64,000 bases of DNA from a virus (IMGVR_UViG_3300036770_000877:32001-96000), one strand, 5' to 3'; numbered from the stretch's first letter, positions 2,659 through 54,858 are shown. Program-made: numbers and translations. Notes: a model not told the origin generated them from the sequence alone.

Positions 2659-2742
2659 TTATTTAATTTCACCTCCTCCTTTTTATAGGATATAAAGTTT
2701 TGCGGCATTTCCTCAAATCCAATAATACTTGAACTGGGGTTA

Positions 2743-5350: not shown

Positions 5351-5357
5351 TAATTAA

Positions 5358-5756
5358 TTAGGAGTAAAACTCCTGTACCTCCTTGGGAGTGGCAAGTCTG
5401 AAACCTTCCTGTGTGTCAAAAATCTCCTGTGCGTCCTTCTCGGACATTACGATAAATGGATTTTCTTTTGTAAATGTAAACTCATTTACATCATATCTTG
5501 GATTCATTCTTTCCATCTTTACTAAGACTTGTCCACCTTTAAGCTCTGTTAGTGGCTTTGATCCCGTTGTTTTTCTTGGTTCTAAATCTGCTTCTGCTTT
5601 TTCTGCATTATTAAAACTATTATACATTTCGTAGCTTACGCCCTCTTCTGCGAGTAGGGCAACTAGGTCTGCCTTATTTTTGGCTGACTGGTGGTCTACC
5701 GCAAAATCTTCTGCGACCTTTCGAAGCTCTTCAAGCTTCATATTACTAAAAGACAT
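5358..5756 (-). CDS. Hypothetical head-associated protein with N-terminal Rho-N/SAP-like helix pair
   Basis: MKLEELRKVAEDF..KNKADLVALL; located after the capsid gene. Confidence 0.55.
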   Translation of the reverse strand: MSFSNMKLEELRKVAEDFAVDHQSAKNKADLVALLAEEGVSYEMYNSFNNAEKAEADLEPRKTTGSKPLTELKGGQVLVKMERMNPRYDVNEFTFTKENPFIVMSEKDAQEIFDTQEGFRLATPKEVQEFYS

Positions 5757-5800
5757 TTATTCTCCTCTCAGTCTTTTCCTTCTAATTATAGCACCCATAT

Positions 5801-5839
5801 GACTAAAGGGGAACCCCTTTTTGGAGTTCCCCTTTAGAC
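5801..5839 (-). terminator. Stem-loop terminator after major capsid gene
   Basis: CTAAAGGGGAAC / GTTCCCCTTTAG inverted repeat. Confidence 0.7.
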
Positions 5840-5859
5840 TATTTAGTTTTTAAAGGTTG

Positions 5860-6846: not shown

Positions 6847-6879
6847 TTTTTTATTTTTCACCTCCGTTATTTTTATAGA

Positions 6880-8190: not shown

Positions 8191-8231
8191 AGCAACACTA
8201 ATTTTATCAACTATTTGTTAGTAATGCAAAA

Positions 8232-9803: not shown

Positions 9804-10132
9804 TAGTCGTTCCTCAAATTCTTTAGGCTATCTTTGTACTCACCAATATCCAGTGGATCTGGTGTTAGTCCCCACTTCAACCTCTGTTGCTGTTCTTCAT
9901 ACTCTTCATCGTTAATCTTTCTTTGTCCCGACAAAAATACTGCTTGGCCTGTTTGAATGCCATAACCTTTGATAGCTTCGGTAAGAGCGTTAATTCTATT
10001 TTGGTCTCCCTTAAATGCAGAAACTGATAAATAGTTTCCATTATCATCGCCTACCCAGCGTCCGTCTGGCATTTGCCACACATAAACCCCTAATCGGGTT
10101 TCTTCAACAATAGATGTTTTAATTGATTTCAT
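9803..10132 (-). CDS. Hypothetical protein upstream of portal
   Basis: 109-aa ORF coupled to the portal; -10 TATCAT 6 nt before the ATG. Confidence 0.7.
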   Translation of the reverse strand: MKSIKTSIVEETRLGVYVWQMPDGRWVGDDNGNYLSVSAFKGDQNRINALTEAIKGYGIQTGQAVFLSGQRKINDEEYEEQQQRLKWGLTPDPLDIGEYKDSLKNLRND

Positions 10133-10192
10133 ATAGTAATGATACCATCTTTTATTGCAAATAGCCAGAGTTTGTAATAGAATATGCCAAAA

Positions 10193-12637: not shown

Positions 12638-12651
12638 AATATTCCCTACTA

Positions 12652-12855
12652 CTAAGCTAGAACAGCTGTTATTTGAGCTTGCTTTTCTGCAATTGAAGCA
12701 TTGAGCTCAGCAATCTTATCTGAGTCAGGAGATGTCTTTGCATTTTCTGCAATTTTTTCTACCTCAAGTGCGTACATCTGGTATTCAAGACTTCTTGCAG
12801 CCGCCTCTTGGATAGCTGTTTTTTCGTCTTCAGTTAGTTTTGTGTATGTTGGCAT
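12652..12855 (-). CDS. Small helical hypothetical protein
   Basis: 67 aa; GAAAGGAGG RBS. Confidence 0.65.
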   Translation of the reverse strand: MPTYTKLTEDEKTAIQEAAARSLEYQMYALEVEKIAENAKTSPDSDKIAELNASIAEKQAQITAVLA

Positions 12856-12885
12856 TTTTCCTCCTTTCCAAATTATATCAGTATA

Positions 12886-13065
12886 TTATAAATCTGACAA
12901 TAGGTCTTGGCACACCTGCTTTTTTAATATAGCATCGTCCAATATTAACCTATTTGATTCTTTATCAGGGCCAACCTCATCTGCATATGGGGTAAGCCTT
13001 TCTATTAAATCTTCTAGTCTCTGTATTTCAGATAACAAGAATTCTGTTTTATCGCTTATGTTCAT
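12886..13065 (-). CDS. Small hypothetical protein
   Basis: TAATG coupling to the upstream gene. Confidence 0.55.
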   Translation of the reverse strand: MNISDKTEFLLSEIQRLEDLIERLTPYADEVGPDKESNRLILDDAILKKQVCQDLLSDL

Positions 13066-15101
13066 TATAGCCACGCAGTATAACTTGAGTAGGAAGAGTT
13101 TCCTGCAGAGTTAGTTGCTCTTGCCCTCCATCTAGCATAAGAATAAGTTGAGCTATTTCTTGTAACTGTTTTTGTTCCGCTTCCGCTTACGCTACCAGAA
13201 GCAGAAGCTTCAACGGTAGAGGTATTGGAATCAGAAAGTTGTAGATCCCAGTCATAACCAGTTGGTGTTCCACCAGAACCCTGGTTAATTGTAAGAGTCC
13301 AAGTATAGTATCCGTTTATGTATCCATCATAATTATTTGACACCGACGGTACCCCAGGAGTTGTAACTGCAGATGTTGTAGATGCAGTAGCTGGACCAGA
13401 CCAAGCGGAAGTTCCCCCTGGACCAACTGATCTAACCCAAACATACCATGTTGTTCCAGATGCTAAACCACTAATTGTTTTAGATGTACCAGTTTGATTA
13501 AAATCTACATAACTTCCTGGATTATAGTTGGTGCTATTATAGTAAATATCATATGAAGTAGTATTAGCCATTGCATTCCAAGATGCCGTTATTGAAGATG
13601 TTCCTCCAGAAGATGCACTTAGTCCAGTAGGAGCGCTTGGTGCTGGTACTGGATATGTTCCAGAACTTGTTCCAGTTCCGCTAGTAGCATCAGACAAACT
13701 AAGGCTACTTGATCCAGATAGTGTTCCAGCTAACGAGGCCCCCGTTGTATAAGCAGTAACTGAAGAAACAGATATATTAGTTCCAGCAAGTGTCAGGGAG
13801 TTTCCATTCACCTGTTGACTTCCAGAAGATCCATCTGCAACATAACTAACAATATAATAAGAAGCTCCACTAGAACTTGTCCAAGATATCGTTGCCTGCT
13901 TATTTGTATTTACTGCATAAACTCCTACAGAGTAACTGCTACCTGGTGTTGCTCCCCAGTTATCATTTGTAACATATCTAGCATTAGATCTGTATCCTTC
14001 TGAACCGCCGCTGATATAAGAAAAATAATAACTAGCATTAGATGTAGCATTCCAGGTATAACTAACGTTGTTTGAGGCAAATGTTAGTCCAGAAACTGAT
14101 GGTGTACCAGGAGTTGCTGTAGCATTTGATATGCTATAAGTAAAAGCACTTAATGTTGTAATTGTTGCAGTTGAGCTATAAGTATATCCAGATCTTTTAT
14201 CTGAAGTTGCTACAGAATACTGTACTGCGTAACCTTGATAATTTGTCGATCTTGGTGCAATTGTATAAAAAGTTGTAGACGAGTTAGCGTTGGTATAAAT
14301 TTCCGTTATTGTTTGACCAACTGAATACCCAGATGCCGAAACAGTTTTCCAAGGGGATCCCGATCCAAAAGTACCAACCCAAATTTCATATGAAGAAGCT
14401 CCAGCTACATGCTGCCACTGAATAATAACCTGCCTGTTTGAATTAACAGATCTAATACCTACTTGAACATTTCCAGCCGTACCAGTTCCAGAATATGTTC
14501 TATTTATTTGATCAAAGCTAGATATAGAACCGTTAGTTGTAGTATATTCATAAGCGGTTGTATTTGCGGTTGCTGACCATGATCCAGAGTAGGTACCCGT
14601 CCCAGTACTAATGCTTACAGAACTTGGAGAGCTTGGTGTAATTGTATAATCATAAACTGTTGCGGATGCAAGATATGGCAACTCTATAACTGATGTAGAA
14701 ACTGTAATAGGTGTTTGACCTCTACTGTTTGTTGCTGTTATGGTTACTGAAATAACTGTTTCAACATCATCTGATGTAGTTGTATACGTTTGAGATGTTG
14801 CACCAGATATATTTGCGCCATTTCTTTTCCATTGATAAGAGTATGAAGTTGGATTATATGCATCTTCATTTCTCCAAGTACCGCTACTAATTGAATAAGT
14901 TGATCCTAGTCTTCCTATAGAACCAACTGTAGCCACTATAGATGGGTATACAATTATGGATGGGTATTCTGGATAATTAATCTTCCATGAAGATCCATTC
15001 CAAATCCATCCTCTTACGGCTTTTTTAAATGTAGAATTGTTATAAACATTTAATTTTATTGCTTGCTTAAAATCTGAACCATTGTATATTTTTAAAGCCA
15101 T
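13065..15101 (-). CDS. Ser/Thr-rich virion protein with Ig-like and fibronectin type III domains
   Basis: YSYQWKRNGANISGATSQTY (Ig); PSAPTGLSA..SITASW..ISGLASGTTWYVWVRSVGPGGTSAWS (FN3). Confidence 0.8.
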   Translation of the reverse strand: MALKIYNGSDFKQAIKLNVYNNSTFKKAVRGWIWNGSSWKINYPEYPSIIVYPSIVATVGSIGRLGSTYSISSGTWRNEDAYNPTSYSYQWKRNGANISGATSQTYTTTSDDVETVISVTITATNSRGQTPITVSTSVIELPYLASATVYDYTITPSSPSSVSISTGTGTYSGSWSATANTTAYEYTTTNGSISSFDQINRTYSGTGTAGNVQVGIRSVNSNRQVIIQWQHVAGASSYEIWVGTFGSGSPWKTVSASGYSVGQTITEIYTNANSSTTFYTIAPRSTNYQGYAVQYSVATSDKRSGYTYSSTATITTLSAFTYSISNATATPGTPSVSGLTFASNNVSYTWNATSNASYYFSYISGGSEGYRSNARYVTNDNWGATPGSSYSVGVYAVNTNKQATISWTSSSGASYYIVSYVADGSSGSQQVNGNSLTLAGTNISVSSVTAYTTGASLAGTLSGSSSLSLSDATSGTGTSSGTYPVPAPSAPTGLSASSGGTSSITASWNAMANTTSYDIYYNSTNYNPGSYVDFNQTGTSKTISGLASGTTWYVWVRSVGPGGTSAWSGPATASTTSAVTTPGVPSVSNNYDGYINGYYTWTLTINQGSGGTPTGYDWDLQLSDSNTSTVEASASGSVSGSGTKTVTRNSSTYSYARWRARATNSAGNSSYSSYTAWL

Positions 15102-42832: not shown

Positions 42833-42859
42833 TTAGCACTCCCCGAAGCAGAGTGCCAA
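42833..42859. promoter_or_regulatory. CIRCE element (HrcA operator) upstream of hsp20
   Basis: TTAGCACTC-N9-GAGTGCCAA, one mismatch to consensus TTAGCACTC-N9-GAGTGCTAA. Confidence 0.85.
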
Positions 42860-43023
42860 CTATATTATATCATCTGGATAGAGGTCTAGCCAGTCTGGGC
42901 CATCTTCCCTATCACATCTACCATCATTTTTTTTATTTCTACTCATATAATCATAATATCATATGGAGTGATCAGTGCGCCGAAAATATGACACCCCCAA
43001 TAAATATGCCGTATAATAGCTAT

Positions 43024-43368
43024 ATGAACCTATACGATCAATTAACCCCCGTAGAGAAAGCCTACCACGATGCCTTGCTTTCAGTAGTAGATAAATTTGG
43101 ACCTTTCGATAAGGGCAGCGGATCTGTCTGGGTCGGATATGAAGATGGCTCTAATAATGAAAATGCCTCCATTGGAGTAAAATGCGGAAACTGCTCCTTC
43201 CATGTAGAAATGCAGGGGATGTCAGAGCTAGGATGTAAAATTTTATCCTTTAAGGTAGAAGAAAATGGATTATGTAGATTGGCTGCTATTCCAGATGGAT
43301 TAGTGAATGCCGAAAATGATAACACCGATAATGAAAATATGGATAAATTCTGGAAGGGCATATTCTAA
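43024..43368 (+). CDS. Hypothetical protein with HiPIP-like four-Cys motif
   Basis: CGNC..C..V..NGLC; leaderless ATG 6 nt after TATAAT (43012-43017). Confidence 0.6.
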   Translation: MNLYDQLTPVEKAYHDALLSVVDKFGPFDKGSGSVWVGYEDGSNNENASIGVKCGNCSFHVEMQGMSELGCKILSFKVEENGLCRLAAIPDGLVNAENDNTDNENMDKFWKGIF

Positions 43369-43748
43369 TGTATACTTATTACACTAAAATTGAAAATGTC
43401 GTCGATGGCGACACTGTAGATGTTTTTATCGATCTTGGCTTTAAGGTATGGAGATCAGAGCGTATTCGCCTTGTAGGGGTAGATACAGCCGAAAAGAATA
43501 CTCCCTATGGCAAAGCTACCAAGGCATACCTTACCCAACTTTTGGCGGGGAAGCTCGTAAAACTCGAAGTCTTTAAACCAGATAAGTACGGTAGATACCT
43601 AGGTAAGATATATATCAATAGCGATATTTCGATCAATGACCAAATGGTAGCTAAAGGTATGGCTAAGGGTTATATGGGAGATTCCAAAGTAGGACTTTGG
43701 ACTCAAGAAGAGCTTAATAAGACTACTATAGATATTACTCTGGAATAA
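43368..43748 (+). CDS. Thermonuclease (SNase-like)
   Basis: VVDGDTVDV, RIRLVGVDTAE, DKYGRYLG. Confidence 0.9.
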   Translation: MYTYYTKIENVVDGDTVDVFIDLGFKVWRSERIRLVGVDTAEKNTPYGKATKAYLTQLLAGKLVKLEVFKPDKYGRYLGKIYINSDISINDQMVAKGMAKGYMGDSKVGLWTQEELNKTTIDITLE

Positions 43749-44144
43749 AGTCATCTAGGGCAAGGAGAATTTCTCTTGCTATCCCGTCGAAATTTATTGA
43801 TCCATTATTAAAATACTTACCTGACTGTATAAGCTTTTGTAGCGTATCAGCTAGATATTGCTGTTTTGTCATATCCCGTCCTCCTAATTTATTAGACGTA
43901 GATAATCAATTATAAGTTATATAGTCATTATTAGCAAAATACTCTATATGCCCTGTTTATTTATATATTGGTATTTTGTTAATAAAATTTTAAATTTTAC
44001 AAAGGTGTTTTCGTATATAGCTATGGGATCCTATTTTGAAAATCCCCCCACCCTTTCCATATTTACCAAAATGTTAGTAAATTTTTAATTTGTATGATGC
44101 AGCATTTTGCGATGTCCGATTTGTCCTAATAGCGAGCACAGATT

Positions 44145-44160
44145 TGTGAGCAAGGTCACA
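44145..44160. promoter_or_regulatory. CRP/GlxR-type box
   Basis: TGTGA-gcaagg-TCACA, perfect match. Confidence 0.7.
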
Positions 44161-44208
44161 AAGTTTTTTTTCAAAATGTCCGATTTATCCGTGTTGTCCC
44201 CTTGAAAA

Positions 44209-44230
44209 TGTCAGACCCCTCTGCTAGACT
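44209..44230 (+). promoter_or_regulatory. PafBC/RecA-NDp-type promoter (first of 13 exact copies)
   Basis: TGTCAG-N10-TAGACT. Confidence 0.75.
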
Positions 44231-44279
44231 TTAGTCATAGAAAGTTGATAAAGGTTATCAACAAAGAAAGGAAAACAAA

Positions 44280-44492
44280 ATGTTTTCACTAAGTTATAAA
44301 ATTCAATCAAAGTCCGAAAGTAATGTGTTCGGCACTTGTCTAGGTGTCGTGTTCGATACCGAACAAAAGGCTTGGTCATATCTTGACCTAGTAGAAAAGG
44401 ATAACTACATCCTTGAATGTAATCTAAAAGAATTAGAAAACTACAAGCCTAGCAAGCGTGTAGTATTCGCTACTACTAGAAGTTGGGAGTAA
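44280..44492 (+). CDS. Early hypothetical protein
   Basis: AGAAAGGA RBS. Confidence 0.7.
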   Translation: MFSLSYKIQSKSESNVFGTCLGVVFDTEQKAWSYLDLVEKDNYILECNLKELENYKPSKRVVFATTRSWE

Positions 44493-44496
44493 TTCA

Positions 44497-44697
44497 ATGA
44501 ATGAACAAACTCTACTAACTAAAATGGGTTTCTCTACTCATTCCGCCGTTTCATCTTCTATCGTATCCGATGGGTGGGAGCGTTTTGCCACCTGCTCAAA
44601 ATGCGGTTTAGATATATCTGCCTTTTGGGTAGATGATGAAGACCGCCTTAGCGGTTGGTCATCTTGGAAAGCCACTAGTGGCTTATGCCAGGCGTGA
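44497..44697 (+). CDS. Early hypothetical protein (CxxC)
   Basis: ORF; its stop codon overlaps a CRP-like box. Confidence 0.65.
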   Translation: MNEQTLLTKMGFSTHSAVSSSIVSDGWERFATCSKCGLDISAFWVDDEDRLSGWSSWKATSGLCQA

Positions 44698-44804
44698 TAT
44701 AAATCACATCCAGCTCTCGGCGTGTCGCCTTGATATTGTCGGGAGTATCTGATAGTATTTACATATACAAATAAATAAATAAGAACCTAAAGAAAGGGGA
44801 CAAA

Positions 44805-45005
44805 ATGTCCGCAAATGTATATTCAATCGAAAACCTATTAGTAGGTAAAACCTATCGCTCAAATAGCCTAACAGGTGAAATAATCTCAGCCGAGCCTCAC
44901 CCTAAAGGTGTATGGTATGAGGGTTGCGATTCCTACTTAGTAGAAATCCGTAATGCTAATGGCGGTTATTCTTATCGCACAATAGCGGTAAAGGTAGGTG
45001 AGTAA
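44805..45005 (+). CDS. Early small beta-barrel-like protein
   Basis: AGAAAGG RBS; resembles 47793-48008. Confidence 0.7.
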   Translation: MSANVYSIENLLVGKTYRSNSLTGEIISAEPHPKGVWYEGCDSYLVEIRNANGGYSYRTIAVKVGE

Positions 45006-45007
45006 TA

Positions 45008-45166
45008 ATGAAAATCACTTACTCAATATGGCAGGGCTCTATTATCAAGGGCTCAGGATTCACCGCCTCTAAAATGTCGGAGGTCGCTGATACAATAAAA
45101 GAACTAAACGCAACAGACACTAAACCAAAGTTTGAGGCGTATATTAGCAAAATCGAACAGAACTAA
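45008..45166 (+). CDS. Early hypothetical protein (52 aa)
   Basis: MKITYSIWQG..; below the ORF-track cutoff. Confidence 0.55.
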   Translation: MKITYSIWQGSIIKGSGFTASKMSEVADTIKELNATDTKPKFEAYISKIEQN

Positions 45167-45184
45167 CGAAAGGAAAACTAAAAA

Positions 45185-45349
45185 ATGGAAATACAAATCG
45201 AATTCTCAAAATGGGGTTTTGGTTTTTACTCTGATTTTCTTGCGCTAGATTTTACTTGGGGTTTTCTTGGCTCTCTTGTAGTAATCTATTTCGTAAATAA
45301 AATTCTAAAGCGTAATGAAATAAAATTATTTCGTAAAAGAGTAAAATAA
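45185..45349 (+). CDS. Early small membrane protein (54 aa)
   Basis: GAAAGGA RBS; one hydrophobic segment and a basic tail. Confidence 0.55.
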   Translation: MEIQIEFSKWGFGFYSDFLALDFTWGFLGSLVVIYFVNKILKRNEIKLFRKRVK

Positions 45350-45350
45350 A

Positions 45351-45521
45351 ATGATGACTAGAAAAGACTACATCACCGCTGCGGATATTCTAAATCAAGC
45401 ATATCCAGAAAATCCCGAACTAATTTTAGAGATGGCTTCTGATTTCTCTGATTATTTCGCAAAGGATAATCCTAGATTTTCCCGCCCTCGATTTTTTGAG
45501 GCAGTAAAAAAGGGCTGGTGA
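45351..45521 (+). CDS. Early hypothetical protein (MTRKDY..DNPRF type)
   Basis: MMTRKDYITAADIL..FAKDNPRFSRPRFFEA. Confidence 0.65.
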   Translation: MMTRKDYITAADILNQAYPENPELILEMASDFSDYFAKDNPRFSRPRFFEAVKKGW

Positions 45522-45564
45522 GATAACTCACAAAACTGATCGGCGTGTCGCCTTGACAAATCTG

Positions 45565-45588
45565 CGACACGCCCGACAGCGGCGGGCC
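45565..45588 (+). repeat. 24-bp intergenic direct repeat, copy 1
   Basis: CGACACGCCCGACAGCGGCGGGCC. Confidence 0.95.
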
Positions 45589-45590
45589 TT

Positions 45591-45606
45591 TCGAACAGAT
45601 GTTCGA
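45591..45606. promoter_or_regulatory. Actinobacterial LexA SOS box
   Basis: TCGAAC-agat-GTTCGA, perfect match. Confidence 0.8.
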
Positions 45607-45751
45607 TTTAAGAGAGCCCCAAAATGTGGTGTAAATCACAAAACAAAATGTCCGATTTATCCGATTACTGGTCAGTAAATGTCAGTGGTCTATGGTAGGA
45701 TACTAGGTATCAAGATGAGATAAAGGTTATCTCAAAGAAAGGTGGTCTAAA

Positions 45752-45964
45752 ATGGCTACATTAGAAATATTCGAAATGAACGAAAATGGTGCTGGTTGGG
45801 TATCATTAGAAAATGCTTCACAATCTACAAAACTAGATTTGGAATTAGCAATCATAACAAATGCTCCCGTGCAAATGTTGTGCTTCAAATGTCATACACC
45901 AATTCCAAAAGGAAATGTGTGTTTCAATCATAAAAATGTGAGAGGTGGTATCTACCTTGACTAA
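45752..45964 (+). CDS. Early hypothetical Zn-finger protein
   Basis: CFKC..C..H; AGAAAGGTGG RBS. Confidence 0.7.
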   Translation: MATLEIFEMNENGAGWVSLENASQSTKLDLELAIITNAPVQMLCFKCHTPIPKGNVCFNHKNVRGGIYLD

Positions 45965-46063
45965 AGATGTTTTTGGATTTGAAAATGCAATTCAATTAGA
46001 CCATTTAACTTTAGAAGAGTTAAAAGAATTAGAAAATATTTTAGAAAAAATAAAATAATTTTT

Positions 46064-46136
46064 GGTGCGTTAGATTAGTGGTTAAATCACTACACTGTCA
46101 CTGTAGAGATCATGGGTTCAAATCCCATACGCATCG
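46064..46136 (+). tRNA. tRNA-Asp (GTC), CCA not encoded
   Basis: Cloverleaf: acceptor GGTGCGT/ACGCATC, D arm GATT/AATC, anticodon arm CTACA-CTGTCAC-TGTAG, T arm ATGGG-TTCAAAT-CCCAT. Confidence 0.9.
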
Positions 46137-46143
46137 CTAGCTG

Positions 46144-46167
46144 CGACACGCCCGACAGCGGCGGCCC
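46144..46167 (+). repeat. 24-bp intergenic direct repeat, copy 2
   Basis: CGACACGCCCGACAGCGGCGGCCC (one mismatch). Confidence 0.9.
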
Positions 46168-46176
46168 TGTGGATAA
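46168..46176. promoter_or_regulatory. DnaA box
   Basis: TGTGGATAA = reverse complement of TTATCCACA. Confidence 0.5.
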
Positions 46177-46216
46177 CTTTGTCAATACGACACGCCGTAA
46201 AAACGCTGGAAATTTT

Positions 46217-46265
46217 TGTGATTTCTAACACAATGTGACGCACAACACATGTGATGTGGCTCACA
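46217..46265. promoter_or_regulatory. Three tandem CRP-type boxes
   Basis: TGTGA-N6-ACACA (46217), TGTGA-N6-ACACA (46234), TGTGA-N6-TCACA (46250). Confidence 0.75.
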
Positions 46266-46350
46266 ATGTCCGATTTATACCTATTTTCGGCGGGAAAATG
46301 TCAGTCCCCCCTGCTAGAATTGTGGCATAGAAAAAAGAAAGGATAACTAA

Positions 46351-46479
46351 ATGAAAATTTGTTGCTTCTGCGAAATTGACTTAGATAATGACGCTAAGTT
46401 TTGCTGGAATTGCCTAGAGTATAAAGGCGTAATGTCCGTTGAGGATTTTGAAAAATACTATGGAGAAAGGATTTCCTAA
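46351..46479 (+). CDS. Early small Cys-rich protein (42 aa)
   Basis: CCFC..CWNC; AGAAAGGA RBS. Confidence 0.55.
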   Translation: MKICCFCEIDLDNDAKFCWNCLEYKGVMSVEDFEKYYGERIS

Positions 46480-46670
46480 TGTCAGATTATCTTGATTATC
46501 TAGATGAAATCTACGAGGAACTCGTAGACGAATTCGGTCATGAAATTGAAAGTAATTGTATTCATGACTAAAATGTGAGGTATCTCACACCGACACTAGG
46601 GGCTAAATCCCCCAAAATGTCAGCCCCCAATGCTAAAATTGTATCCATAAAATAAAGAAAGGAAGTCAAA

Positions 46671-46853
46671 ATGACTTACACGATTAGACTAGAAACCTTC
46701 AATGGTTCAGTATCCAAAATCAACCTACCTTCTAAAGGTGCGGTTGCTCAATTCATCAACACTTATCCAAATCAACTCCCTGTCGGTATTTCCGTCAAGT
46801 TTGATTGCGACTTGCTCGGTGTTCGTGGTGTTCTAAAAGGAAAGGGAAAATAA
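46671..46853 (+). CDS. Early hypothetical protein
   Basis: AGAAAGGAAG RBS. Confidence 0.7.
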   Translation: MTYTIRLETFNGSVSKINLPSKGAVAQFINTYPNQLPVGISVKFDCDLLGVRGVLKGKGK

Positions 46854-46854
46854 A

Positions 46855-47046
46855 ATGGAACTTTCTACACTAAATAAAATCAGCGATTTATTCAAGCAAC
46901 TAGAGGAAAAAAGATTTCCTAATAGTTCATCAAATAGCACGACCTCAATGGCTCGACAAATCGGCACAATGTCGGTTTTCGTTTCAGAAAAAAATGCTAA
47001 GCAAATAATTAAAATGTTAGAAAGAGAAATTGGAGAAATTGAATAA
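46855..47046 (+). CDS. Early hypothetical protein
   Basis: Coupled ORF. Confidence 0.6.
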   Translation: MELSTLNKISDLFKQLEEKRFPNSSSNSTTSMARQIGTMSVFVSEKNAKQIIKMLEREIGEIE

Positions 47047-47197
47047 TGAAAAAAAATGTTTTAATCTCGTATGTTGTAGAGGCTGATACCGACCTATCCG
47101 CTATCTTTGCTTTACAAAAATCCCTGCGCTATTTACCTGATAGCGAATTAATTAAGTTTGACGCTTTCGAAGTTCTAGAAGTAAAGGAAAATAAATA

Positions 47198-47467
47198 ATG
47201 ATTAGCACCGCTCTAAAAATTCAAGACGCAACACAAAAAGCCGTTATGGATGAAAACATAATGAAAATGGCAGGCTTTATTTATACTCATAGAAATGATG
47301 TTGATGACGAAATGATGGCTAAAATCATTTTTGAATATTCCGCAAATTTATCTGCTCTCGTTGCTACTTTGGTAAGCGAAGCAATTTTATCAGAAACCCA
47401 AATGAAAGAAATGATTTCAGAAATCGAAAGTTTTGAAAAAATTTCTAAAGAAGTTTTAGGAGAATAA
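47198..47467 (+). CDS. Early hypothetical helical protein
   Basis: AAAGGA RBS; TAATG coupling. Confidence 0.65.
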   Translation: MISTALKIQDATQKAVMDENIMKMAGFIYTHRNDVDDEMMAKIIFEYSANLSALVATLVSEAILSETQMKEMISEIESFEKISKEVLGE

Positions 47468-47601
47468 AATGACAACAAATAGAATTTTAACAACGCTGGT
47501 TCAATTAATTTTAGCTGGCGTAACAATTCCACTTTTAATTTTAGCGATTAAAGATTTTAAACACGATCTAAAAAATAGATAGTTTAATTTTCAACTAAAT
47601 C

Positions 47602-47625
47602 CGACACGCCCGACAGCGGCGGGCC
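47602..47625 (+). repeat. 24-bp intergenic direct repeat, copy 3
   Basis: CGACACGCCCGACAGCGGCGGGCC. Confidence 0.95.
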
Positions 47626-47792
47626 TGATTTGTCCGATTTACGGCATTATGTCCGTTTTGCCAGAATTTCCAGATTTTTTTGTGAAATTTATCACACGAC
47701 ACGCCGTATCAAAATATGAGATTACTTACGAGTAGGTTGAAAAATGTCAGTGGGTTTTGGTAAACTTGTAGGTATAAAGAAAGGAAAAACTA

Positions 47793-48008
47793 ATGCGTTC
47801 ATACTCAATTGTAGATTTGCTAGTAGACCAATACTATGCGCCTACTTCTCTCCGCCGTCGTTTCAACGGAGGTATCATAAACTTTGCGGAAAAGCGTGAA
47901 GATGTCTATTTATCTGAAGGCTATGAAGCCTTCGCTATTCGCTTCCGCCCTACGGGATCTTTTCAAGACCAATGGGCGACAGTTGCCGTCAGGGTTTCCG
48001 ACTACTAA
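47793..48008 (+). CDS. Early small beta-barrel-like protein
   Basis: YSIVDLLV.. resembles 44805-45005. Confidence 0.7.
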   Translation: MRSYSIVDLLVDQYYAPTSLRRRFNGGIINFAEKREDVYLSEGYEAFAIRFRPTGSFQDQWATVAVRVSDY

Positions 48009-48056
48009 ATGTCGGAGGCTTCTGCTAGACTTGTTCTATAAAGAAAGGAAAAGAAA

Positions 48057-48218
48057 ATGTCTGCTATAAAAAGACTAATTGAAAACATACTCGCTTGTGA
48101 TACCTGCTATGGAAAAGGTTTTATGGGTTGGGTTTCTCCAGACGGAGACTATGACTTTGAGTATTGCGATTGTAATCCTCATAACCTAGTTTTGGAAGGA
48201 AGCGAGGTAATTTTCTAA
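48057..48218 (+). CDS. Early Zn-finger protein (53 aa)
   Basis: CDTCYGKG..YCDC; AGAAAGGA RBS. Confidence 0.6.
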   Translation: MSAIKRLIENILACDTCYGKGFMGWVSPDGDYDFEYCDCNPHNLVLEGSEVIF

Positions 48219-48327
48219 TGGAAATTTTTCTCTGCGATAAATGCGATACTCTCGCCCAAGTATCCCGAATTGGTGATACAATAAAAATAACTAAGTGTGC
48301 TTGCCTAGCACTAGATTGGAAAGACTA

Positions 48328-48537
48328 ATGGACTACTTATACTCGCTAACTATCTCCTATGACGGAGAATTGGTTTCAACAACCCGCTCATCGGATTTGC
48401 TAGAAATAGTAAATGCGTGGAATAAATGCGTGGACTTTGGAGATGCTAAAGAATACGCAACCTACAATTTATCAGACCCTAGTGGTAAGATGTATACCAA
48501 GAATTTCTACAGAAATGGAGTAGTAAATGGGAAGTAA
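48328..48537 (+). CDS. Early hypothetical protein
   Basis: TAATG-coupled start MDYLYSL. Confidence 0.6.
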   Translation: MDYLYSLTISYDGELVSTTRSSDLLEIVNAWNKCVDFGDAKEYATYNLSDPSGKMYTKNFYRNGVVNGK

Positions 48538-48805
48538 TCTATCAACCGAACTATCAAGTGGGCTATTGGATTTGGATTTGGAGCAACAGATAACTATTCA
48601 GTTGCGTTCTAATCATTACCCGCCCGTTCCGTATTCAATGGTTTCAGTTTGTATTGAAGCGATTGACGCATACAACGAAGGCGAACACAATAAAGAAATA
48701 ACTTTGCCTGAAGGCGTAAGTTGGCGTGGAAAAAATTCTGCACCTGCTTATTCAATTATTGACGGGCACCACTTGTGGGATTGGATTATCGAAAGCGAAT
48801 TGTGA
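48527..48805 (+). CDS. Early hypothetical protein
   Basis: LRSNHYPPVP..CIEAIDA..HHL.DW. Confidence 0.7.
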   Translation: MGSNLSTELSSGLLDLDLEQQITIQLRSNHYPPVPYSMVSVCIEAIDAYNEGEHNKEITLPEGVSWRGKNSAPAYSIIDGHHLWDWIIESEL

Positions 48806-48842
48806 TCTAAATCATAAAAGCTGCGGCGTGTCGACTTGACAA

Positions 48843-48866
48843 CGACACGCCCGACAGCGGCGGGCC
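48843..48866 (+). repeat. 24-bp intergenic direct repeat, copy 4
   Basis: CGACACGCCCGACAGCGGCGGGCC. Confidence 0.95.
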
Positions 48867-48947
48867 TCAAATGTCCGATTTATGAGCTTTAAGTAGAAAC
48901 GCCGAAATTTTGTGGAATGTCAGTGGGTTATGCTAGACTAGTTTATT

Positions 48948-49082
48948 ATGAGAAAGAAAACGACTGAGGAATTACGGCGACTAATGGAGTTGCGCCGTAG
49001 TAATGCAGCCACGCCTGTAAAAAATAAAAAGGCGTATTCTCGCAAGCGCAAGCATAAATGTCGCCCCTATGGTGTAGAATAA
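48948..49082 (+). CDS. Basic 44-aa peptide with ArfA-like C-terminal motif
   Basis: ..LRRSNAATPVKNKKAYSRKRKHK; ATG 8 nt after the -10 of a PafBC-type promoter. Confidence 0.55.
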   Translation: MRKKTTEELRRLMELRRSNAATPVKNKKAYSRKRKHKCRPYGVE

Positions 49083-49104
49083 AATAAAGAAAGAAAGGTG
49101 CCCC

Positions 49105-49824
49105 ATGAAACTAAAACGCTCTAATGATAGAAAGGTTGCAAATGCAGTCTCAAGAAATGGAAAAACCCCAACAATTGCCAACACTTTTGGATTGCCTGCT
49201 GGAAAAGACTTCTCGTGTCCTGGTGCCACTAGTGTTTGTGAAAGCGTTTGCTATGCAGGAAAACTCGAAAGAGTATACAAGGGAGTAAAGGCTGTCCTGC
49301 TGCATAACTGGGAACTCCTACGCAATGCAGATATGGAAACAATGTCTCTATTGATTGATGAGATGATTGTTGACTTTGTTGCAGATTGTGAGAAAAAGTC
49401 TGCAGATAAATTATTCCGTATCCACTGGGACGGTGATTTCTTCAATGACACTTACGCATACGCATGGAAGGCTGTTATTGCTAATCATCCCGACGTACAA
49501 TTTTGGGTATACACTCGTGTAAAGTCTGCTGCTCTAATTCTAAAAGATATTCCTAACCTATCACTCTATTATTCTACTGATGATGAGAATAAAGAAATTG
49601 CTCATGAACTAAAACTAAATGACGGTATTCGCCTTGCTTATCTAGGAAAAACTTTCGCTGTCACCGAAGACAAAATGAAAGAACTAACTGGCAAGCCTGG
49701 TGCAAAATGCCCTGAGAATGCAAAACGTATTCCGTTGATTTCAACTAACGGTAGCGCATGCGTGTCATGCGGTCTATGCGTTTATGGTAAAGCAGATATT
49801 CGATTTAGCGCAACTAAAAAATAA
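49105..49824 (+). CDS. Gp88-like protein (Fe-S/radical-SAM-like Cys cluster)
   Basis: CPGATSVCESVCYA, FRIHWDGDF, FWVYTR, C-terminal CP..CVSCGLC. Confidence 0.75.
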   Translation: MKLKRSNDRKVANAVSRNGKTPTIANTFGLPAGKDFSCPGATSVCESVCYAGKLERVYKGVKAVLLHNWELLRNADMETMSLLIDEMIVDFVADCEKKSADKLFRIHWDGDFFNDTYAYAWKAVIANHPDVQFWVYTRVKSAALILKDIPNLSLYYSTDDENKEIAHELKLNDGIRLAYLGKTFAVTEDKMKELTGKPGAKCPENAKRIPLISTNGSACVSCGLCVYGKADIRFSATKK

Positions 49825-50185
49825 GGAGAAAAATGAAACTATACAATGCATACATGGCCCTGTACTTAGGAAATGAAGAACAACAACAAGCTGCACAAGA
49901 ATATCTCGACTCCTTGGAAGAATTAAAAGAAGAGGACCAGGAGTAATTGGGTTACGTATTTGTAGCTTTATCTGTTGGGATCTTCTTGGTCCCCGCCGCT
50001 ATAGTTTATTTACTATATAAGAAAAGCTGAGGCCCGCCCCGCATAAAGCGATTTGTCAAATTACGACACTGTGATTTTTCCCACAAAAGTTTTTGAGAAA
50101 ATGTCCGATTTGACCCATTTCTAAGTTGCGCTCTGTCGGTCTGAAATGCTAAACTATTATTACCAACAAACGAAAGGAAGCAAAA

Positions 50186-50335
50186 ATGGCTAAGACACCA
50201 AAAATCGGTGAAACCATTACAACTGCTCAGAGCAAAGTTTCTGGCGTTGTAAAGGAAGTCGTAAAGAACCCATCTGGCTCGGTGCGTGTTCGTCTTGATG
50301 TAGAGGGCGAAACTCGCTGGACTACTATCAAGTAG
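50186..50335 (+). CDS. Early small SH3-like protein (49 aa)
   Basis: KIGETITTAQSKVSGVVKEV..RWTTIK; resembles 50948-51130. Confidence 0.6.
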   Translation: MAKTPKIGETITTAQSKVSGVVKEVVKNPSGSVRVRLDVEGETRWTTIK

Positions 50336-50350
50336 TTTATCAGATAAAAC

Positions 50351-50381
50351 TGACCTGAGCAAGTCAATGCTAAACTGCTCA
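50351..50381 (+). ncRNA. H-type pseudoknot element (second copy)
   Basis: TGAC-CTGAGCAA-GTCA-ATGC-TAAACTGCTCA. Confidence 0.5.
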
Positions 50382-50442
50382 CCAAGTTTATTCTGTCGGT
50401 GTGGTCTGATAGAATAGTAATACCAACTAAGAAAGGAAAAAA

Positions 50443-50865
50443 ATGGCAAGAAACGGCAAGGCGATAAATGTAAAAATCGCTACAACCAAAGTAATCAAGG
50501 CACTTGAGGGTGCGTTGGCTAAATTGGAAACTGAGTATGCTTCACAAGAAGCAAACGAGGCTAAGTATGAAAAGGCTCGTAAGGCTTGGGCTAAAGAAGT
50601 GGGTAAGTTAGCACTTGCTCAAATCTCAAAGGCAGAGAACCTAACTGCTTCTAAACGCTACAACAACGAGGTAAATGTTGATTTCAACTTACCTGCTGGA
50701 ACTATCGTTCTACCTGATGAACCTAAAAAGGATTTCACCACAATGAACGAGTGGAACTATCGTGAGCAGAAAGAGGAAATTGAGAACGCTATTCGTATTC
50801 TCAAGATGACCGACGAGGAAGTCGTTTCCACTTCAACTTACAACGCTATCGCTAGATACTTGTAA
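50443..50865 (+). CDS. Early hypothetical protein
   Basis: AGAAAGGA RBS; 140 aa. Confidence 0.75.
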   Translation: MARNGKAINVKIATTKVIKALEGALAKLETEYASQEANEAKYEKARKAWAKEVGKLALAQISKAENLTASKRYNNEVNVDFNLPAGTIVLPDEPKKDFTTMNEWNYREQKEEIENAIRILKMTDEEVVSTSTYNAIARYL

Positions 50866-50947
50866 TCCTGATGGGGGAGGGGTGTTTGACCTCCCCCACC
50901 AAATCTGATAAACTAAATATAAGCAAACAAAACGAAAGGAAAAACGA

Positions 50948-51130
50948 ATGTCCCCAGTATTCGGAAATAACAGCGATAGTTTCTATCGCAAGGGTGATGT
51001 ATTCACAACTGGCAAGTCAGGTATCACAGGTCGCTTGGAGGAAATCGTATCAGTTAGACCAAATCTAACTAAGATTGCTCTACGCACACCTAACAACCAA
51101 CTTCGCTGGGCAATGGTAAAGATTGGCTAA
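50948..51130 (+). CDS. Early small SH3-like protein
   Basis: GAAAGGA RBS; TTGACC-17-TAAACT promoter upstream. Confidence 0.65.
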   Translation: MSPVFGNNSDSFYRKGDVFTTGKSGITGRLEEIVSVRPNLTKIALRTPNNQLRWAMVKIG

Positions 51131-51488
51131 TCGATAGCCGATAGAAACAGTGGCAGTTTCGGGAATGTTCTCGCCACATGTCTTAAGTAAGAATTCCCAC
51201 CAAATTTCCCCTGGATGATCATGCGGAGTACAAAACAAAAATAGTAGACTCGTCAGAAGACGTCCAGGGGCCCAATTGGGCCACGGTCCATTCGAATGCA
51301 GTCAGCTTGGTTACCTTTCTTTCCAGGCTGGCTGCAAGGCCCGCCCCGCCAAACCACGCTTGTCAAGTTACGACGATGTGATTTTGCCCACTAAAAAATG
51401 TCCGAATTGCCCTAGTTTGCCAATCTAACTAGACATAGCCCACCTATGTATGCTAGACTTGATAAGTATCCAATAGAAAGGAAAAAAA

Positions 51489-52520
51489 ATGGCTACAAAT
51501 CTCGCTCATAAGCAAGAAGTAGAAAACGGCGATGTGTCGTTTGCTCTTGTTGATTCCCGCTCAAATCCTGCTTGGCACTCTTTTGCCAATAAGGTGTTCG
51601 ATTCAGATTCAGGAGATGTTTCAATCTCCGACATAATGAATGGTGCTAAACTATCCAACTGGAATGTCCGTCTTGAAGATGTTGCGCCTCTTGCGCCACA
51701 ACACAATTTCATTACTGATTCATTCCTTGTTGTTCGTGATAACCCAATGACCGATGGTGCTACTGATGTGCTATCTGTTGTCGGTTCTCGCTATAAGGTT
51801 GTTCAGAATGAAGAACTATTCTCATTCGCTGAAAATCTCCACGATGGAAATCCTGATGTAAAGGTTGATTCTGCTGGTTCTCTAAAGCAGGGTCGCATTG
51901 TTTATGGTTCTTGGTCTTTGCCAAATGAACTAATCATTGACCCAAAGGGTGTTGCTGATAAGACAAAACTTTATCTTATCGTTTGGACATCTCACGATGG
52001 TTCTGTTGCTGTTCAAGCAGCAATCACACCTGTTCGTGTTCGTTGCCAAAACACTCTAAACCTTGCGATGAAATCTGCTAAGCAATCTTTCAAGATTCGC
52101 CACACGCAGACCGCAGATGGAAAGATTCTCGCTGCTCGTGAGGCTCTTGGTTTATCTGTTGCTTACTTTGACCAATTCTCAAAGCAGGCTAATGAACTTT
52201 ATCAGGCTTCTATTACCGATAAGCAGTTTTCTGACCTTATCCGTAATCTTTACCCAAAGCCTGAAAAAGACGCTAAGGGTGCGTTGAAGAAGTGGGAAAA
52301 TAAGGTTGTCTTGATTGACGAACTTTATCATAACTCACCAACTAACGCAGGAATCAAAGGCACAAAGTGGGGTGCGCTAAATGCTCTAACTGAGCGTTTG
52401 GATTATTTCCGTTCTGCTCGTAAGGGTAATACGGAATCTCTTTCCGCTTCCGCTTCAGGTTTTGACCCTGTTATCACCGCAGAGAAAAATAAAATTCTCA
52501 AAGCGGTTGTCGCATTGTAA
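51489..52520 (+). CDS. DUF932 (TIGR03299-type phage/plasmid) protein
   Basis: PAWH, VGSRYKVVQNEELF, AGSL..GR, SHDGS..TPVRVRCQNTL, IRHT, GTKWGALNA.TE..D. Confidence 0.9.
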   Translation: MATNLAHKQEVENGDVSFALVDSRSNPAWHSFANKVFDSDSGDVSISDIMNGAKLSNWNVRLEDVAPLAPQHNFITDSFLVVRDNPMTDGATDVLSVVGSRYKVVQNEELFSFAENLHDGNPDVKVDSAGSLKQGRIVYGSWSLPNELIIDPKGVADKTKLYLIVWTSHDGSVAVQAAITPVRVRCQNTLNLAMKSAKQSFKIRHTQTADGKILAAREALGLSVAYFDQFSKQANELYQASITDKQFSDLIRNLYPKPEKDAKGALKKWENKVVLIDELYHNSPTNAGIKGTKWGALNALTERLDYFRSARKGNTESLSASASGFDPVITAEKNKILKAVVAL

Positions 52521-52528
52521 AATGCTAC

Positions 52529-52559
52529 GGGGGCGCAGAAATGCGCCCCCTATTTTTTT
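52529..52559 (+). terminator. Intrinsic terminator
   Basis: GGGGGCGCA-GAAA-TGCGCCCCC followed by TATTTTTTT. Confidence 0.85.
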
Positions 52560-52714
52560 GATCTAAAGCTCGGCGTGTTGATTTGACAAAACAAGTTTTG
52601 CGGGGCGGGTCTGACTGTTTATTTTATCATTACGTCACAAGTTAAAAATGCCCTGGAATTTGCAGGATGTCAGTCCCATGGTGTAGTATTGTATTAAGGA
52701 TAGAAAGGTAGATT

Positions 52715-52924
52715 ATGAGTTGGCAATTAGAAGCCAGTTGCAGCGAGGACCAGCATGACTTGTTTTTCTCGCAGGCTAAAGGTAAAATGGATAGAGCAAT
52801 ACAAATTTGTGGCTCGTGCTCTGTAAAGGGTGAGTGTCTTAAGTTTGCTATTGATGAAAAAGTAGAGTTCGGCATATTCGGTGGTCTCACACCGCAAGAG
52901 AGGAAAAAGAAATGGCTGATATGA
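52715..52924 (+). CDS. whiB: WhiB-family Fe-S transcription factor
   Basis: W..EASC..DLFF..AIQICGSCSVKGECLKFA..FGIFGGLTPQER. Confidence 0.92.
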   Translation: MSWQLEASCSEDQHDLFFSQAKGKMDRAIQICGSCSVKGECLKFAIDEKVEFGIFGGLTPQERKKKWLI

Positions 52925-53145
52925 CAGACGACCTATTCTCAGATAGAATAGGAGAACATATTTTAGGTGCTATTCAAGTAGATATCGAAGAGCAACTATT
53001 TGAAGATTGGAATAACTCTAATCTAGATGAAGGCAATCTTTATGCAGAATGGAGATTTTTTGAATTCGCTACACCTGAAATCAAGAAACAATACAACGAG
53101 CACTACGGATATACAGAAGAGGATGAGTATTACTTATCATGCTAG
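52912..53145 (+). CDS. Acidic hypothetical protein
   Basis: ORF with RBS. Confidence 0.65.
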   Translation: MADMTDDLFSDRIGEHILGAIQVDIEEQLFEDWNNSNLDEGNLYAEWRFFEFATPEIKKQYNEHYGYTEEDEYYLSC

Positions 53146-53312
53146 GTTATACTGCAGATGATGTTGAACGTATGATTAATGCGGTTCATGATTCTAAATT
53201 ATTTTATCTTAGATACCCGTCAGACTTAATTGATAAGTCACAGTTACGTGCAGATCTAGAAGATACGGTCAGCTTTTTACAAGGTGTACTAGCCGAGGGG
53301 CACGTCCAATGA
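53139..53312 (+). CDS. Hypothetical protein (57 aa)
   Basis: MLGYTADDVERMI..FLQGVLAEGHV. Confidence 0.55.
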   Translation: MLGYTADDVERMINAVHDSKLFYLRYPSDLIDKSQLRADLEDTVSFLQGVLAEGHVQ

Positions 53313-53571
53313 GCACTAGACATAAACAGTGTACACAATGCTATAATGGAAAGTATTACTTTTACAATGGTAAAGACGAACTAGTCGCTATCCCGTGCCC
53401 ATTTTGCTAGGAGATAAAATGAGTAAAGAGTTTAAAGAACTTGTTGGAAAAGGCATTCTAGGTTTTTTGGGCCTAGGTGCCATAGTTATATACGTTATCT
53501 ACAAAATATTTGTGGCCTAAGTCACACCTATATTCGTTGAATTTGTCCCCGTTAACTGTTAGGATAGATAT

Positions 53572-53781
53572 ATGGAAAAACTAATAGAATATATGAATAT
53601 ACATCTTGTCAGTCTTCTGCAAGATTTAGAATCTTTGGAAGAACAAATGGAGCGATTGGATATGAACTCTAAGGACTTTATTGAGTTAGACTTTGAATTC
53701 AATAATATCTCAGGGCAAACCATTGCTACCCGCCACCTAATGTCAGTTGCTCGTGATATCCTAGAAGAACAGAAAGGATAA
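53572..53781 (+). CDS. Hypothetical protein (leaderless)
   Basis: TTGAAT-17-TAGGAT, ATG 6 nt later. Confidence 0.65.
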   Translation: MEKLIEYMNIHLVSLLQDLESLEEQMERLDMNSKDFIELDFEFNNISGQTIATRHLMSVARDILEEQKG

Positions 53782-54585: not shown

Positions 54586-54666
54586 AGCTGGCGGGTCGGG
54601 TCTGTCTCAAAATATGGACATTACGTACAACTTGAAAAATGCCCTGGAATCCTGTATTATTAAGAT

Positions 54667-54858
54667 ATGACTGAAACAACCCTGGAATATGTGTTAACAA
54701 ATAATGATAGATGTGACCGTTGTTCTGCCCAAGCTTTATATTTATGCAAAGGTATTACGGGTGAGCTAATGTTTTGCGGTCACCATTTCAATTCAAATAA
54801 AGAATCATTAACTAACTGGGCTTACGAGATCGTAGACGAGTCCTCTAAAATTTCTTGA
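54667..54858 (+). CDS. Small actinobacterial-type Zn-binding protein
   Basis: DRCDRCSAQA..GELMFCGHH motif, resembling small actinobacterial host proteins. Confidence 0.7.
   Translation: MTETTLEYVLTNNDRCDRCSAQALYLCKGITGELMFCGHHFNSNKESLTNWAYEIVDESSKIS

Follow-up and report, generated by a model that had tools for sequence, protein, structure and literature searches.

Introduction

The described promoters that come closest to those reported here depend on PafBC. Their published in vivo consensus, tGTCgg(N10)tA(N3)T, has its upstream part at -28 to -23 and lacks a -35 element; PafB reads the GTC triplet and PafC contacts region 4 of SigA, a mode of action called sigma adaptation (PMC8635444), and PafBC is switched on by single-stranded DNA (ssDNA) (PMC11804915). 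A motif equal to this consensus in letters, in spacing and in the missing -35 is repeated in a stretch of viral DNA of 64,000 nucleotides (IMGVR_UViG_3300036770_000877:32001-96000; hereafter the window), where it forms the core of an array of blocks between 44.1 and 53.8 kb. On balance, the array is probably a set of promoters run by host factors, with PafBC-type sigma-adaptation cores and phased CRP-type co-activator sites. The IMG/VR virus record from which the window is taken is 104.5 kb long (linear, about 85% complete, about 40% GC), and its + strand is densely filled with tiny open reading frames (ORFs) from 43.9 to about 57 kb of the window.

Many short boxes in one phage genome are known from the cluster A mycobacteriophages, whose stoperators are asymmetric, stand mostly in one orientation relative to transcription, lie within transcription units genome-wide and bind the phage repressor. 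A preliminary description of the present region had read it as a switchboard or a decoy array of host transcription-factor operators, with sites for PafBC, CRP, LexA, DnaA and WhiA. The elements that it listed were all found in their places, and the order that it gave (GC-rich repeat, variable slot, CRP-type palindrome, ATGTCCGATTT, about 32-33 bp, then promoter, ribosome-binding site and small genes) holds in blocks 1, 4, 5, 7, 9 and 10 of the array.

The core promoter motif

Against 200 dinucleotide shuffles of the whole 104.5-kb record, which serve as the baseline for the enrichments in the phage given here, TGTCRG-N10-TANNNT was found 16 times for 1.9 expected, with a shuffle maximum of 7. 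The array region, 44209-53741, contains thirteen of these promoter-type motifs, each on the + strand and co-oriented with the genes; the - strand of the genome has a single copy. Twelve of the array motifs have an AGAAAGG-type ribosome-binding site (RBS) and a start codon 8-88 nt downstream.

With a looser form of the promoter pattern, at least 120 stretches were found in IMG/VR, and a clade set was formed of 80 loci (33-44% GC) with at least three promoter-type motifs on one strand. Early genes are common to the window and 72 of the 79 other loci, at 26-100% amino-acid identity, and the loci are a diverged clade, not a handful of near-identical genomes. The spacing of the motif is strict in this set (596 copies with N10 versus 5 with N9 and 5 with N11), as is its strand bias (596 versus 16), and the consensus of 409 dereplicated promoters is aaaTGTCAGtccc..cTGcTA.aaT, without a -35. 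The same upstream element is seen in a control set of 294 promoters that were selected without the motif, on the extended -10, the RBS and the ATG alone: at -16 to -11 from the start of the -10, T/G/T/C/(A/G)/G reach 0.77, 0.72, 0.77, 0.76, 0.83 and 0.70, and at -38 to -27 the information content is at most 0.15 bits, that is, no -35 signal is present. The likeness to PafBC sites drawn in the preliminary description is upheld by the published consensus and the strict N10, and by host-like genomes, where recA and repair genes are preceded by the same motif (see below). We have high confidence that the array elements, by these features of their sequence, would act as promoters, and moderate confidence that PafBC and CRP would be the factors that read them.

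CRP-type palindromes

The perfect palindrome TGTGA-N6-TCACA occurs four times in the record for 0.14 expected. The region of 44.1-53.5 kb holds these four perfect and eight one-mismatch CRP-type sites, and the other 95 kb only three one-mismatch sites. Across the clade a palindrome lies upstream of 214 of the 409 dereplicated promoters, compared with 1.4 in shuffles, and its start peaks at -44, -54, -64/-65 and -75 from the first T of TGTCRG, with centres at about -64.5, -74.5, -84.5 and -95.5 from the inferred transcription start, about 7 nt past the -10; there is also a small off-phase peak at -49. Eight of the 12 sites in the window are on this ladder (44145, 44693, 45625, 46234, 46574, 47681, 50070 and 53511, the last counted at a minor -33/-34 position). 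By analogy with class I CRP promoters, such a 10-bp ladder would be the signature of an activator that needs to face the polymerase. The phasing of the perfect palindromes, together with a CRP in host-like genomes that is orthologous to the Mycobacterium tuberculosis protein, agrees with their earlier assignment as CRP sites, and we take CRP to be their putative reader.

Other boxes upstream of the promoters

Three further boxes exceed their shuffled expectation in the record, namely TGTCCGATTT (8 versus 0.11), CGACACGCC (9 versus 0.07) and the SOS box TCGAAC-N4-GTTCGA (1 versus 0.00), whose lone perfect copy lies at 45591-45606; the DnaA-type 9-mer TTATCCACA is at chance in this genome (2 versus 1.26). 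The enrichment expected for the motifs of the region is thus found for the promoter motif, the CRP-type palindrome, TGTCCGATTT, CGACACGCC and the SOS box, and fails for the DnaA 9-mer. The palindrome, ATGTCCGATTT, CGACACGCC and the SOS box are nearly confined to the array region. Two elements previously listed as separate, CGGCGTGTCG and CGACACGCCG, are reverse complements, and hence one box in two orientations. The hexamer TTGACA adjoining CGGCGTGTCG was rejected as a -35, no -10 being read in the sequence at 16-18 bp downstream.

Box logos were built with 20-nt flanks from dereplicated contexts across the clade. The DnaA-type box aGTTATCCACAgg has 133 such contexts with non-conserved flanks, aaaTGTCCGATTTgt has 73 and CGACACGCCg has 202, both with a conserved core in flanks that are not conserved, and SOS boxes of the form TCGAACAnnTGTTCGA stand in eight different contexts. 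Short conserved cores in non-conserved flanks argue for selection on the boxes, beyond shared descent. The LexA and DnaA boxes, weakly supported in this genome, recur across the clade, and in relatives an inverted DnaA box pair lies upstream of the promoter of the DUF932 protein gene. The positions of the boxes are also regular: ATGTCCGATTT peaks at -33, and also at -24, from the -26 element, and is co-oriented with transcription in a ratio of 86:16, while CGACACGCC peaks at -26 and its complement at -18. The SOS box starts 89 bp before the -26 element (45680) of the nearest promoter.

CGACACGCC contains GACAC, the WhiA core, within a conserved motif that is a 10-mer, far longer than the WhiA 5-mer, and WhiA acts with WhiB on region 4 of SigA (PMC10243135). 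The GACAC core was the only ground for the earlier WhiA assignment, which is not sustained; a link to WhiA/WhiB through this core and the phage-encoded WhiB may serve as a lead only.

Conservation and swapped slots in relatives

A repeat of 24 bp that recurs in the array is found exactly in four other IMG/VR contigs, which are 80-98% identical to the window. Upstream of the DUF932 gene, footprinting over 32 loci (47-100% amino-acid identity) shows the -26/-10 core and the CRP site to be kept while the flanks diverge. When the orthologous block 45500-45745 was aligned with four relatives, the CRP-type sites, an inverted GC-rich repeat and the -26/-10 core formed an invariant frame with two exchangeable slots, as had been anticipated. 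After the 24-bp repeat there is a SOS box in the window, L001 and L002, and TGTCCG-type boxes in L003 and L005 (ATGTCCGATTT and the right half of the SOS box are the same but for one base); the slot directly upstream of the -26 element is filled by ATGTCCGATTT in the window and L002, and by CGACACGCC in L001, L003 and L005.

Relatives also differ in that promoter-plus-gene units are gained or lost and sub-blocks flanked by conserved anchors are replaced, and relatives with about 80% identity in other parts agree fully (100%) in the 24-bp repeat region. These features, for which the PeSL cassettes of T4-type phages offer a precedent (PMC2839356), would suit mobile regulatory cassettes, whose blocks persist mainly as recombination substrates that shuffle small early genes, with much of the recurrence of the motifs being due to common descent and gene conversion. 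Such an origin would leave the strict N10, the 10-bp phasing of the palindromes and the short motifs in non-conserved flanks unexplained, and as the main account of the array we judge it quite improbable. It is compatible with promoters read by host factors and is not an alternative to them.

The putative host and host-like genomes

Homologues of the DUF932 protein in GenBank phages are overwhelmingly from actinophages (Mycobacterium, 222 records; Streptomyces, 116; Microbacterium, 52; Arthrobacter, 50), which makes an actinobacterium the very probable host. Its low GC and its freshwater-type relatives suggest the streamlined lake Actinobacteria as the host group. Megablast of the region against GenBank phages gave no match, and WhiB gave no clue to the host, having no relative among the genome contigs and only phage-like homologues in protein databases. 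Close homologues of the phage NrdJ (53-83% identity; L126-L151) were found on contigs binned into metagenome-assembled genomes (MAGs) of many unrelated taxa, among them Saccharibacteria, Bacteroidia, cyanobacteria and archaea; most likely, these are mis-binned phage contigs.

The class was entered through an Aquiluna MAG that holds a mis-binned phage contig, and complete actinobacterial genomes of 1.33-1.5 Mb and 45-49% GC were used as stand-ins for the host. Genes with a WYL domain are present in 299 of 301 sampled genomes of the class, a tally that includes eight unpublished genomes (G007, G015, G024, G030, G032, G036, G043 and G263), used only there. An adjacent pair of PafBC-like WYL genes was found in G001, and a pafB-like gene beside tatC in G233. 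In four host-like genomes the region upstream of recA has, in order, a GCGACAC element, TGTCAG-N10-TANNNT and a SOS box (L156-L158; G233:C1:862600-862950); the GCGACAC element lies 14-16 bp upstream of the -26 element, and the SOS box follows directly after the -10, unlike its placement in the phage. The phage SOS box at 45591 matches the recA box of these genomes in 15 of 16 bases, including the 4-base spacer.

The genome of G233 (1,436,726 bp, 45.9% GC) shows no excess of the motif, with 16 copies versus 16 in a reversed-sequence control. About eight of them nevertheless lie a short way upstream of ORFs, with several leaderless cases. One of these genes is recA, and the others include a DUF6504 gene that has a SOS box and the genes of a DEDDh exonuclease and an RNase H-like protein. 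Host-like genomes share with the phage a preference for TGTCAG. At least 4 of the 16 copies have GACAC or GTGTC in the 40 nt that precede them. The motif thus marks DNA-damage genes in the host-like lineage, as in mycobacteria. Six of the 16 copies fall within 24 kb (G233:C1:400800-424800), some upstream of small ORFs of unknown family, and this cluster is a possible damage-inducible or defence island. The 9-mer TTATCCACA of the phage is also present in the oriC region of G233. One CRP is encoded per host-like genome, and that of G233 aligns full-length with M. tuberculosis CRP (3i54) and is identical to it in the recognition helix.

Plausible promoters of the PafBC type are more numerous in 10 kb of the phage than in the whole 1.44-Mb host-like genome (13 versus about 8), as are perfect CRP palindromes (4 versus 0), and TGTCGG without a -10 was read on the reverse strand of the 24-bp repeat. 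Such numbers would fit a decoy or sponge that mainly titrates host PafBC, CRP, LexA and DnaA, most strongly after phage replication, with the promoters being secondary. Yet the boxes are fixed, helically phased and oriented with respect to promoters that have an RBS and genes, none of which a sponge needs, the SOS box is single, and the DnaA boxes are at chance level. A decoy as the main role, the second of the two possibilities raised in the preliminary description, is accordingly very improbable, and titration would be at most a side effect at high copy number; these fixed positions and orientations make a switchboard the best-supported role.

As candidate motifs of host regulons, ATGTCCGATTT, CGACACGCC and the CRP palindromes were rejected, none being enriched in the host-like genomes: ATGTCCGATTT occurs 1-3 times per genome, which is chance level, and CGACACGCC three times versus five in the control. 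The assignment of ATGTCCGATTT to a host factor was therefore not borne out, and the lack of enrichment of ATGTCCGATTT and CGACACGCC makes a phage factor possible for these boxes. More broadly, the whole array could be a phage-specific promoter class, in which a phage adaptor like MotA/AsiA of T4 reads TGTCRG, one or more small proteins of the phage recognise the palindrome, ATGTCCGATTT and CGACACGCC, and the resemblance to sites of PafBC and CRP is convergent or partial. Besides the results just given, the T4 precedent, cited in PMC8635444, and the dozens of unannotated small ORFs speak for it, as does Jay2Jay, a distantly related Streptomyces phage whose early promoters also have a CGGACA-type repeat upstream. 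On the other side, the same motif with the same spacing stands at recA and repair genes of host-like genomes, the host-like CRP fits the expected reader of the palindrome, and the first operon must be read by an unmodified host polymerase. Moreover, searches of the phage record (about 85% complete) gave no match to WYL, HTH_Crp_2 or sigma-70 regions 2 and 4, which disfavours a phage-encoded WYL protein, CRP-type helix-turn-helix protein or sigma factor, and Pfam found no DNA-binding domain in 20 small phage ORFs. This is weak negative evidence, since part of the genome is missing from the record and profile searches often overlook small regulators of phages. A phage-encoded reader is thus a serious rival, particularly for ATGTCCGATTT and CGACACGCC; for the array as a whole we regard it as unlikely, if far from negligible.

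Map of the array

The blocks of the array, all on the + strand, are described here from left to right. Block 1 (44112..44230) has ATGTCCGATTT at 44112 and 44176 and a perfect CRP-type palindrome at 44145-44160, which starts 64 bp before the -26 element (44209-44214); the extended -10 is at 44222-44230, and ORFs 44280-44697 follow. Block 2 (44693..44758) consists of a one-mismatch palindrome at 44693-44708 (-44), CGGCGTGTCG at 44718-44727, a -26 element at 44737 and a -10 at 44753-44758, with ORFs 44805-45166 downstream. The motif of block 3 (45075..45096) lies within ORF 45008-45166 and upstream of ORFs 45185-45521.

Block 4 (45517..45701) has an inverted CGGCGTGTCG/CGACACGCC pair (45541, 45565) and the 24-bp repeat (45565-45588), followed by the perfect SOS box, a CRP-type palindrome at 45625-45640 (-55), ATGTCCGATTT at 45648 (-32), the -26 element at 45680 and the -10 at 45696-45701; downstream are ORFs 45752-46058 and a tRNA-Asp (46064-46137). 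In block 5 (46144..46320) the 24-bp repeat (46144-46167) is followed by the DnaA-type 9-mer (46168-46176), a second CGACACGCC (46188), three CRP-type palindromes (46217, 46234 and 46250), ATGTCCGATTT at 46266 (-33), a -26 element at 46299 and a -10 at 46315-46320, ahead of ORFs 46351-46571. Block 6 (46574..46639) is simpler, with a perfect palindrome at 46574-46589 (-44), a -26 element at 46618 and a -10 at 46634-46639, upstream of ORFs 46671-47582.

Block 7 (47602..47766) has the 24-bp repeat (47602-47625), TGTCCG boxes at 47630 and 47649, a perfect palindrome at 47681-47696 (-64), CGACACGCC at 47697, a -26 element at 47745 and a -10 at 47761-47766, and is followed by ORF 47793-48008, at the end of which the bare motif of block 8 (48010..48031) precedes ORFs 48057-48805. 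Block 9 (48801..48939) carries a one-mismatch palindrome (48801), an inverted CGGCGTGTCG/CGACACGCC pair (48824, 48843), the 24-bp repeat (48843-48866), ATGTCCGATTT at 48871, a -26 element at 48918 and a -10 at 48934-48939. The ATG of a 44-aa ORF (48948-49082) is just 8 nt past this -10, which suggests a leaderless transcript; the gene of a GP88-family protein (49105-49824) follows. Block 10 (50031..50155) comprises a GC-rich element (50031), a one-mismatch palindrome at 50070-50085 (-64), ATGTCCGATTT at 50101 (-33), a -26 element at 50134 and a -10 at 50150-50155, with ORF 50186-50335 downstream, and block 11 (50394..50415) is a bare motif before ORF 50443-50865.

Block 12 (51338..51459), upstream of the DUF932 gene (51489-52520), has a GC-rich element, a degenerate CRP-type site (51377), ATGTCCGAATT at 51398 and an extended -10 at 51451-51459. 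TGTCRG is lost from this promoter, contrary to the earlier description: within 51430-51459 the hexamer is ATAGCC in this phage and L002 and TGTCAG in most relatives, with the extended -10 kept, and block 12 is a natural loss-of-element variant. In the 360-nt non-coding gap before DUF932 there is also a strong 14-bp hairpin (51297-51336; local fold z-score -3.2); its loop, of 12 nt, has a sequence complementary to the region's AGAAAGG-type RBS. Block 13 (52529..52689) starts with a canonical intrinsic terminator 3' of DUF932 (52529-52557; a 9-bp GC stem, then a T-run) and has CGGCGTGTTG at 52571, a -26 element at 52668 and a -10 at 52684-52689, upstream of the WhiB gene (52715-52924) and small ORFs. 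A pair of 60-nt repeats, 73% identical and ending in AAAAATGCCCTGGAAT, lies at 52600-52659 and 54591-54650; the second copy, without a TGTCRG element, precedes ORF 54667-54858 (DUF7455).

A possible variant promoter (53511..53565) combines a one-mismatch palindrome at 53511 with TGTCCC-N10-TAGGAT at 53544-53565, upstream of ORF 53572-53781. To the left of the array, a motif copy lies at 43220-43241, within ORF 42853-43368; a staphylococcal-nuclease-like gene (43368-43748) begins 126 nt downstream of it, and the copy may have arisen by chance or may serve as an internal promoter. The 24-bp repeat was rejected as a general RNA terminator hairpin, having an inverted partner in only two of its four copies and no U-tract; the fold z-scores of the two copies without a partner are 0.3 and -1.1. 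The canonical terminator at 52529-52557, which the repeat does not resemble, argues for ordinary terminator use in this system.

Discussion

In the explanation that we favour, at least 12 modular promoters would each drive one to five tiny genes with a strong AGAAAGG-type RBS. Their core, which lacks a -35, would consist of TGTCRG as the -26 element and, after exactly 10 bp, an extended -10 (TGnTAnnnT); host RNA polymerase with SigA would be recruited to it via the host PafBC heterodimer. Since PafBC is activated by ssDNA, the genes would fire once ssDNA arises, for instance upon phage DNA entry or replication, host DNA breakdown or damage. At most promoters a CRP-type palindrome on a fixed face of the helix would bring in host cyclic AMP (cAMP)-CRP as a class I-type co-activator, and interchangeable modules would tune single promoters; these modules include DnaA-type boxes, at times a LexA box, ATGTCCGATTT at -33, and CGACACGCC, which stands at -26 or, as its complement, at -18. 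A bolder version, which we hold as tentative and a little short of an even chance, is that a widespread clade of freshwater actinobacterial phages copied the DNA-damage promoter grammar of its host, so that host PafBC would switch on a dozen phage operons. The copied grammar might, with the same reserve, comprise the PafBC -26 element, the GACAC element, the SOS box and the DnaA boxes, plus CRP sites, and at high copy number the array might also drain regulators from the small regulons of the host.

Several points weigh against host-factor promoters. The ssDNA requirement of PafBC is awkward for immediate-early genes, and the SOS box, about 100 bp upstream of the nearest inferred start, does not overlap a promoter. 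In G233, perfect CRP palindromes are absent and near-perfect ones are not in excess, and a host CRP regulon of this type is therefore not evident there; the stand-in genomes themselves were picked by size and GC. Two or more of the box types may belong to a phage factor, and a phage adaptor could have been missed in a record that is about 85% complete and holds dozens of unannotated small ORFs.

If host-factor control holds, these promoters would form the first class in phages to be governed by a sigma adaptor of the host, and sigma adaptation, so far described only in mycobacterial DNA repair, would gain a second, viral use. In these phages of abundant, hard-to-culture freshwater Actinobacteria, gene expression would, if PafBC and CRP are both required, be wired to the ssDNA/DNA-damage and cAMP signals of the host. 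The array also offers natural promoter variants, including the loss-of-element promoter of DUF932, for dissecting the combination of PafBC, CRP and upstream boxes, and since the PafBC motif is reported to be conserved across the phylum, the reading by host factors can be tested in the published M. smegmatis in vitro transcription system, with no need for culture of the host.

Comparison with known systems

Like PafBC-dependent (RecA-NDp) promoters (PMC8635444; PMC11804915), the cores described here have TGTCRG at -26 and TANNNT at N10 and lack a -35, conservation is highest at GTC and the final G, and the motif stands at recA and repair genes in host-like genomes. Unlike them, they form a phage-borne array of a dozen or more copies that drive tiny genes of unknown function, they are combined with an extended -10 and phased CRP-type sites, and their dependence on PafBC is putative. 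The palindromes share with class I CRP/CAP sites of Escherichia coli, and with actinobacterial CRP/GlxR sites, the 16-bp TGTGA-N6-TCACA and positions upstream at steps of one helical turn, but they are paired with a -26-type core rather than with -35/-10, and, given the inferred start, they peak about 2-3 bp further upstream than the E. coli values.

As in T4 middle promoters (a MotA box plus a -10), an upstream element near -30 replaces the -35. T4 brings its own factors and remodels sigma region 4, whereas none were detected in this record and the element is that of a host activator. The PeSL cassettes of T4-type phages (PMC2839356) are similar in that repeated early-promoter cassettes bracket small variable genes and relatives differ by whole cassettes; their promoter type is another one, and the cassettes here are composites of several distinct boxes. 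The 86:16 co-orientation of ATGTCCGATTT recalls the stoperators, from which the phage boxes differ in their fixed positions upstream of promoters and their restriction to a single region, and no repressor was found.

Jay2Jay is the cultured phage with the closest DUF932 protein (48% identity). Its early region (1-14000) has no PafBC-type motif; in its early terminal-repeat region single small genes each follow CGGACA-type repeats and a TTGTAT...TGTAGACT promoter, an ordinary -35/-10, and CGGACA, the core of these repeats, is complementary to TGTCCG, the core of the ATGTCCGATTT box. Full-text searches of the literature collection used here gave no description of PafBC-type promoters on a phage. 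What appears to be new here, judging from sequence, is thus the putative PafBC-type promoter on a phage, while phage promoter arrays that exploit host transcription factors are of a known kind.

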